Shown: in pieces, positions 53,240-54,418 of the stretch | How positions within the stretch are numbered: position 1 is the stretch's first letter | Layout of the letters: the number at the start of each line of letters is the position of its first letter | Origin: Escherichia coli | Lineage (GTDB): Bacteria; Pseudomonadota; Gammaproteobacteria; Enterobacterales; Enterobacteriaceae | Strand: one strand, 5' to 3' | Assembly (NCBI RefSeq): GCF_016026235.1 | Contig: NZ_CP065613.1 | Length of the DNA stretch: 64,000 nucleotides | Translations under genes and position numbers: made by a program | Notes under the pieces: generated by a model | What the model was told of the DNA's origin: nothing | The model's database searches: none | What the model saw: the letters and a program-made list of their open reading frames with translations, nothing else

Positions 53240-53520
53240 TAATTTGTCCTTTTCAGTCAGTGCAAAAGTCGAGTAAAAGGCATAACCTATCACTGTCATA
53301 GGTAAGAGCTTAGATCAGGTGATTGCCCTTTGTTTATGAGGGTGTTGTAATCCATGTCGTTGTTGCATTTGTAAGGGCAACACCTCAGCCTGCAGGCAGA
53401 CGCTGAAGATACCAAAGGGTAGTTCAGATTACACGGTCACCTGGAAAGGGGGCCATTTTACTTTTTATCGCCGCTGGCGGTGCAAAGTTCACAAAGTTGT
53501 CTTACGAAGGTTGTAAGGTA

Positions 53521-53610: not shown

Positions 53611-54174
53611 ATGTCCTTGATTAACACCAAAATTAAACCTTTTAAAAACCAGGCATTCAAAAACGGCGAATTCATCGAAATCACCGAAAAAGATACCGAA
53701 GGCCGCTGGAGCGTCTTCTTCTTCTACCCGGCTGACTTTACTTTCGTATGCCCGACCGAACTGGGTGACGTTGCTGACCACTACGAAGAACTGCAGAAAC
53801 TGGGCGTAGACGTATACGCAGTATCTACCGATACTCACTTCACCCACAAAGCATGGCACAGCAGCTCTGAAACCATCGCTAAAATCAAATATGCGATGAT
53901 CGGCGACCCGACTGGCGCCCTGACCCGTAACTTCGACAACATGCGTGAAGATGAAGGTCTGGCTGACCGTGCGACCTTCGTTGTTGACCCGCAGGGTATC
54001 ATCCAGGCAATCGAAGTTACCGCTGAAGGCATTGGCCGTGACGCGTCTGACCTGCTGCGTAAAATCAAAGCAGCACAGTACGTAGCTTCTCACCCAGGTG
54101 AAGTTTGCCCGGCTAAATGGAAAGAAGGTGAAGCAACTCTGGCTCCGTCTCTGGACCTGGTTGGTAAAATCTAA
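53611..54174 (+). CDS. ahpC: Alkyl hydroperoxide reductase, peroxiredoxin subunit AhpC
   Basis: 187-aa ORF with the peroxidatic region (FTFVCPTE). Confidence 0.95.
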
Positions 54175-54312
54175 ATTTCCTTCGTTTTTCACGCCATAGC
54201 GGCGTTGGCGTCGCCCGCTCACCCCGGTCACTTACTTGTGTAAGCTCCCGGGGATTCACAGGCTAGCCGCCTTGCTCTGACGCGAAATACTTCGGAAATT
54301 CACCTAATTCTT

Positions 54313-54340
54313 CGGGTGCTGCGGCACCCGATTTTCTTCC
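54313..54340 (+). terminator. Stem-loop plus U-tract in the ahpC-ahpF intergenic region (candidate partial terminator/attenuator)
   Basis: CGGGTGC-TGC-GGCACCCG followed by ATTTTCTT; a second long hairpin lies at 54221-54253. Confidence 0.35.
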
Positions 54341-54418
54341 CCGCACCATGATGCAAGCTGCATCCAGGTAGCCGTAGAGGCCGCTTGCATGATGATGTTT
54401 AAAGCCCAGGAGATAAAC

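Follow-up and report, generated by a model that had tools for sequence, protein, structure and literature searches.

A probable three-part RNA-level junction in the ahpC-ahpF spacer of Escherichia coli: an ERIC repeat, a partial terminator and an RNase III hairpin

Anatomy of the ahpC-ahpF spacer

AhpC is among the most abundant proteins of Escherichia coli and works as a decamer together with a dimer of AhpF. One operon must therefore somewhere arrange an unequal output of the two proteins, and we place this arrangement in the spacer between ahpC and ahpF. The spacer is most probably a three-part junction at the RNA level inside the ahpCF operon, consisting of an ERIC repeat, a partial terminator and a hairpin cut by RNase III. 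The three elements (ERIC, leaky terminator and RNase III site) are already documented in the literature or are members of well-known families. What our analysis corrects is the anatomy: the first of the two hairpins in the first-pass annotation of this DNA belongs to a repeat that most strains lack, and that annotation did not include the RNase III hairpin, for which experiments directly support an effect on mRNA stability.

The window, i.e. the whole stretch of DNA analysed (64,000 nt), comprises the dsbG / ahpC / ahpF / uspG region around the spacer in a K-12-like E. coli. The spacer occupies positions 54175-54418 (244 nt), as had been annotated, and adding 585334 to a window position gives the coordinate in MG1655 (NC_000913.3). 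Compared with MG1655, the spacer carries two substitutions, T for C at both 54186 and 54375, the latter towards the apex of the RNase III hairpin. The window is matched exactly by strain FDAARGOS_943. The features discussed below are:

53611-54174, plus strand: ahpC, peroxiredoxin coding sequence and upstream gene of the operon (open reading frame list; MG1655 annotation b0605)
54174-54300, plus strand: full-length ERIC/IRU repeat of ~127 nt (primer match, alignment, copy number, fold)
54222-54253, plus strand: hairpin 1, the core palindrome at the tip of the ERIC repeat (inverted-repeat search)
54312-54338, plus strand: hairpin 2, an internal intrinsic terminator (pattern scan, fold, conservation, Term-seq)
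54343-54398, plus strand: hairpin 3, long and imperfect, ~20 pairs with small internal loops (inverted repeat, fold, published cleavage)
54408-54421, plus strand: ahpF Shine-Dalgarno sequence AGGAGA (54408-54413) and ATG (54419-54421) (sequence; MG1655 ahpF start 639753)

The RNA of the whole spacer had a predicted folding energy of -87.4 kcal/mol (z -3.45), and none of 200 shuffled sequences folded as well. A promoter scan found no sigma-70-like match in the spacer. The Shine-Dalgarno/start region of ahpF was conserved in the spacer alignment between genera. In the minimum free energy fold of the whole spacer, the left end of ERIC (AUUUCCU, 54175-54181) pairs with this Shine-Dalgarno region (AGGAGAU, 54408-54414) and not with the right end of ERIC. 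The same pairing was predicted in the collapsed E. coli allele described below and was absent in E. albertii and Citrobacter. We set it aside as a functional feature because it is not conserved in these two.

A conserved, probable internal terminator

The hairpin annotated at 54313-54330, together with its U-tract, was recovered to within 1 nt. Its arms (54312-54319 and 54324-54331) pair at all eight positions, six of them G-C, around the tetraloop UGCG, and are followed by UUUUCUU. Hairpin 2 by itself had a predicted energy of -16.6 kcal/mol (z -5.1; 0 of 200 shuffles as good). A plain pattern scan for terminators was not enriched in the region (6 found, 3.5 ± 1.9 expected), so that the significance of this site comes from its energy, its conservation and published 3'-end data.

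Hairpin 2 is invariant across the three E. coli spacer alleles and is fixed in this species. A search with AhpC, run on one genome per species, gave 80 loci, from which ahpC-ahpF spacers were extracted. Among 23 Enterobacterales spacers, 21 contained the hairpin with a T-tract. The stem CGGGTGC/GCACCCG was changed on both sides to CGGATGC/GCATCCG in Erwinia, to CGGCTGC/GCAGCCG in Enterobacter sp. Ag1 and to TGGGTGC/GCACCCA in E. asburiae, and these three double-sided changes are independent of one another. The U-tract is interrupted in the window (UUUUCUU) and weak in some genera, e.g. Leclercia (UUAUCCCC); the stem is imperfect in the metagenome-assembled genome (MAG) CTSoil. The spacing between hairpin and ahpF ATG was bimodal, falling at 21-31 nt in a short class and at 84-93 nt in a long class. 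Spacers of the short class have the Shine-Dalgarno sequence right behind the T-tract and leave no room for a separate ahpF promoter, so that ahpF must be expressed by read-through there.

Published Term-seq data have shown 3' ends of MG1655 transcripts at 639668 (LB at OD 0.4, and M63) and at 639670 (LB at OD 2.0) (Adams 2021, PMC7815308, supplementary file 1). These positions correspond to 54334 and 54336 in the window, the third and fifth bases of the U-tract. Term-seq had been named as a check on the proposed termination in the spacer, and the published ends do map there. The TERMITe supplements contain no entry for this site. Transcripts that read through the terminator must also exist, since RNase III cuts downstream of it in vivo (Gordon 2017, PMC5371410). 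Partial termination at hairpin 2, as the first-pass annotation had suggested, is thus supported by the Term-seq ends, the conservation between genera, the compensatory changes in the stem and the evidence of read-through.

The site resembles other internal partial terminators in having a G+C-rich stem-loop and a U-tract between co-transcribed genes, 3' ends within the U-tract and a downstream gene, ahpF, without a promoter-like site of its own. Unlike these, it has an RNase III site directly downstream, so that processing and termination are superimposed at ahpCF.

The RNase III hairpin

A third hairpin, overlooked in the first-pass annotation, lies downstream of the terminator. Its arms (54344-54364 and 54377-54397) form an inverted repeat with a predicted folding energy of -23 kcal/mol (z -2.7). 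Its ~20 predicted pairs amount to roughly two helical turns of double-stranded RNA, the length expected of an RNase III substrate. RNase III has been shown to cleave an ahpCF substrate in vitro, with a site at MG1655 639695 (Gordon 2017, PMC5371410); according to the legend of Fig. 4 of that study, novel RNase III sites were also mapped by 5' RACE. In the window this site is position 54361, inside hairpin 3. The same study found an ahpC mRNA half-life of ~14 min in the wild type and ~6 min in an rnc deletion strain, with the stability of ahpF unchanged, and its authors proposed that cleavage leaves a protective hairpin at the 3' end of ahpC which blocks exonucleases. The table of Adams 2021 (PMC7815308) lists no Term-seq 3' end at the RNase III site.

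Hairpin 3 accounts for the extra 65 nt of the long hairpin-to-ATG class. Its arms, CACCATGATGCAAG and CTTGCATGATGATG, hardly varied among 14 sequences from Escherichia, Citrobacter, Enterobacter, Leclercia and Superficieibacter, and the hairpin was absent from Pantoea, Erwinia, Providencia and Brenneria. It is limited to one clade of the Enterobacteriaceae, whereas the terminator is much older. Double-sided changes were found in none of 13 pairs in the 14 sequences, and a few changes break pairs. Because the arms are conserved as sequence in this way, selection on hairpin 3 may act on a property other than pairing, or on more than pairing alone.

The RNase III site between pflB and pflA, reported in the same study, is similar in that cleavage of a long imperfect intercistronic hairpin, seen both in vitro and in vivo, stabilises the upstream mRNA. 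In contrast to such sites, the arms of hairpin 3 are conserved as sequence without covariation.

The 3' arm of hairpin 3 is formed by three consecutive ATG codons (54389-54397), which lie 30 nt before the ahpF start and in its frame. We considered the in-frame ATGATGATG upstream of ahpF as an alternative start and rejected it, as both Citrobacter and Enterobacteriaceae RIT691 have the run in another frame. Its conservation is therefore not coding.

Proposed termination and processing at the junction

There are data in support of termination, of read-through and of cleavage, and together they suggest the following order of events. Transcription from the OxyR-controlled ahpC promoters would cross the ERIC repeat; lying directly after the ahpC stop codon, this repeat adds ~127 nt of 3' untranslated region in the form of a long hairpin. 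A fraction of the polymerases would stop at the terminator (54332-54338) and release a monocistronic ahpC mRNA ending at 54334-54336. We infer the efficiency of this step to be partial, so that the remaining polymerases would read through and produce ahpCF mRNA, and ahpF would receive fewer transcripts than ahpC. In the group of Escherichia, Citrobacter and Enterobacter, RNase III then cuts the read-through RNA within hairpin 3, 25-30 nt downstream, and separates the ahpC half from the ahpF half. The ahpC half would presumably be trimmed back to the protective terminator hairpin, a step that we also infer, and give a longer-lived ahpC mRNA.

The Term-seq ends at 54334 and 54336 could partly or wholly result from exonuclease trimming after RNase III cleavage. 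Taken further, hairpin 2 would be mainly a 3' stabiliser: nearly all transcripts would reach ahpF, RNase III would cut them in hairpin 3, 3'-to-5' exonucleases would shorten the product as far as hairpin 2, and the AhpC:AhpF ratio would be set by differential mRNA decay and translation. The increase of the ahpC half-life from ~6 to ~14 min upon RNase III cleavage and the exonuclease-blocking hairpin proposed by the authors (PMC5371410) fit this explanation, as does the lack of a Term-seq end at the cleavage site in the published table (PMC7815308), which is expected of a trimmed product. However, a pure exonuclease block needs no T-tract, and a T-tract is present in 21 of the 23 species, including seven genera without hairpin 3, where it is usually longer (6-8 T). 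Moreover, the mapped ends lie 3-5 nt into the U-tract, which is the usual position of intrinsic termination. We therefore regard a mainly stabilising role of hairpin 2 as unlikely and prefer partial termination followed by RNase III processing.

Hairpin 1 belongs to an ERIC repeat

The first hairpin, annotated at 54221-54253, was likewise found to within 1 nt, with arms at 54222-54235 and 54240-54253. It occurs as a single copy in the 64-kb window and is missing from the W-type and O157-type spacer alleles. We considered a BoxC repeat as its identity and rejected it, as two papers describe BoxC as a triplex-forming motif of ~56 bp; primer matches then identified the hairpin as part of an ERIC repeat. 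ERIC1R and ERIC2 are the standard primers of ERIC-PCR, and we checked their sequences against published printings. The reverse complement of ERIC2 matches 54216-54237 with one mismatch, and ERIC1R matches the abutting site 54238-54259 with two, i.e. three mismatches in 44 positions overall. ERIC repeats (enterobacterial repetitive intergenic consensus), also called IRU, were reportedly described by Sharples and Lloyd in 1990 and by Hulton and co-workers in 1991.

The repeat forms one long imperfect hairpin from 54174 to 54300, the base of which takes in the final A of the ahpC stop codon. End to end, over ~126 nt from the base after the stop codon to ~54300, it aligned with five other copies, among them those in the aceF-lpdA, hsdR-hsdM, rpsB-tsf and ybhI-ybhJ spacers. 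When the spacer was used as query against 5426 complete E. coli genomes, it matched at a median of 9 places per genome, and a match covering 80% or more of the query was present in only 1762 of the 5426; the spacer is therefore in part a dispersed and polymorphic repeat. In ten ERIC copies, compensatory changes occurred in 17 of 34 consensus pairs. The flanks of the repeat read TAA|A...T|T, and even the shortest alleles still resemble remnants of the termini, giving no clean empty site at which a MITE-like TA target-site duplication could be read.

On the plus strand, ERIC had a predicted energy of -46.5 kcal/mol (z -3.7; 0 of 200 shuffles as good), compared with -70.5 kcal/mol on the minus strand. 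ERIC is thus transcribed here in its weaker-folding orientation. The table of Adams 2021 (PMC7815308) contains no Term-seq 3' end at the ERIC core. The copy between aceF and lpdA (compare L006:1185-1311) has the opposite, stronger-folding orientation, and a Term-seq 3' end lies just past its core palindrome at MG1655 127845 on the plus strand; unlike that copy, the one between ahpC and ahpF has no comparable end in the same table.

The repeat shares with other ERIC/IRU elements its length of ~127 nt, the core palindrome, the location in a transcribed spacer within an operon and the many copies per genome, as well as the compensatory changes that keep the long hairpin and the internal deletions that yield shortened derivatives; we found no defining difference. 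Peculiar to this copy are its start at the stop codon of a gene with very high expression, a polymorphism with three alleles and an unusual conservation between genera. A structured repeat right after a stop codon is also reminiscent of the REP/BIME elements in 3' untranslated regions of highly expressed genes, but ERIC is another repeat family that differs in sequence and size.

Spacer alleles in E. coli

An alignment of K-12, W, 83972 and O157 distinguished three forms of the spacer, with 244, 170 and 128 nt. The first has the full ERIC repeat, the second its outer parts only and the third little beyond the ERIC termini. We counted full alleles as spacer matches over at least 80% of the length and the other alleles by junction-specific searches. 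Among the 5426 complete genomes, 1762 had the full form (32%), 2545 the collapsed form (47%) and 1114 the ends only (21%), together 5421; hence ~68% are without an intact ERIC repeat. The collapsed allele is still predicted to fold into a stable hairpin (locus L002). The 3' half (54301-54418), with the terminator and hairpin 3, is a single-copy sequence fixed in E. coli and was present over at least 80% of its length in 5421 of the 5426 genomes; 5421 of 5422 matching genomes were at least 95% identical in it.

Hairpin 1 is not a dedicated regulatory hairpin but the palindrome at the core of an ERIC repeat, of which some two-thirds of E. coli genomes have no intact copy here. Since most strains have deleted most or all of it, ERIC at ahpC-ahpF is best seen as an old passenger that is dispensable. 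The census also offers a ready natural experiment on the long-standing question of whether ERIC repeats have any effect.

ERIC between genera

ERIC was found at the same site in Citrobacter werkmanii, Enterobacter sp. Bisph1, Superficieibacter and a MAG. In Enterobacteriaceae RIT691, REP-like palindromes occupy exactly this position behind the ahpC stop codon; the hairpins of E. asburiae and Leclercia are of other kinds, and Pantoea, Erwinia, Providencia and Brenneria have nothing there. At three of the loci compared (L019:2065-2276, L017:2065-2209 and L022:2065-2224), REP/BIME-like palindromes or other G+C-rich hairpins replace ERIC. This distribution suggests that the site after the ahpC stop codon may have accepted structured repeats repeatedly, upstream of a conserved terminator.

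The window ERIC (54175-54300) was 94% identical to the copy of Superficieibacter (L025:2065-2190), compared with 67% at the third codon positions of ahpC and 69% in the rest of the spacer. A metagenome locus from another genus (L094, ~2440-2570, reverse strand; ahpC 88% identical) carries the same ERIC subtype with 89% identity, the rest of its spacer being 53% identical. The copy of Citrobacter, a closer relative, was just 79% identical. Conservation above that of synonymous sites argues against a neutral passenger and for some constraint. Given the 94% against 67% at third positions, we considered that the K-12 ERIC may have been transferred horizontally from a Superficieibacter-like donor. 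The presence of the same subtype at the same site in a further genus (89%) would favour slow evolution of an old insertion. The high identity between genera may reflect selection, gene conversion or transfer.

The repeat, including hairpin 1, might be an active regulator of ahpC as proposed for Yersinia, with the three E. coli alleles giving different AhpC levels. According to the summary given in PMC2229807, the Yersinia proposal is that the base of the repeat is opened by ribosomes stopping beside it, so that an RNase E site becomes accessible and the stability of the upstream message is altered. This precedent would fit a repeat whose base abuts the ahpC stop codon, whose identity between genera exceeds that of synonymous sites and of the rest of the spacer, and whose collapsed form retains a predicted stable hairpin. 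Against it, ~68% of E. coli genomes do without the intact repeat, other genera have REP elements, other hairpins or nothing in its place, it is transcribed in the weaker-folding orientation, and no 3' end has been mapped inside it (PMC7815308). We consider such an active role doubtful and prefer to see ERIC as a dispensable passenger upstream of the terminator. There is likewise only a slim chance that presence, collapse or absence of ERIC alters ahpC mRNA stability or read-through of the terminator, in which case the conservation between genera would reflect selection on that role. If so, E. coli lineages would differ heritably in AhpC:AhpF dosage and in peroxide scavenging.

Small RNAs

The first-pass annotation had also raised the possibility of a stable RNA derived from the 3' untranslated region. 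It is very improbable that this region of ahpC is released as a regulatory small RNA ending at the terminator. A strong 3' end does exist there (PMC7815308), and an ahpC-ahpF entry on a Salmonella microarray was induced 4.6-fold by bile salt, which shows only that the region is transcribed. However, no Rfam family matched the plus strand of the spacer, the unique sequence between ERIC and the terminator amounts to ~11 nt and is not conserved between genera, leaving no conserved single-stranded seed upstream of the terminator, the U-tract is interrupted and the literature searched mentions no such RNA. Two Rfam matches on the minus strand, V_AS5 (22.9 bits; threshold 96) and CssrA (20.1 bits; threshold 93), were rejected as noise or shared repeat content.

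Outside the spacer, between dsbG and ahpC, the enterobacterial small RNA STnc70 gave a near-threshold Rfam match at 53373-53466 on the plus strand (38.8 bits, gathering score 40; E 6e-06). A Term-seq 3' end at MG1655 638796, i.e. 53462 in the window, lies at the end of this STnc70-like match (Adams 2021, PMC7815308).
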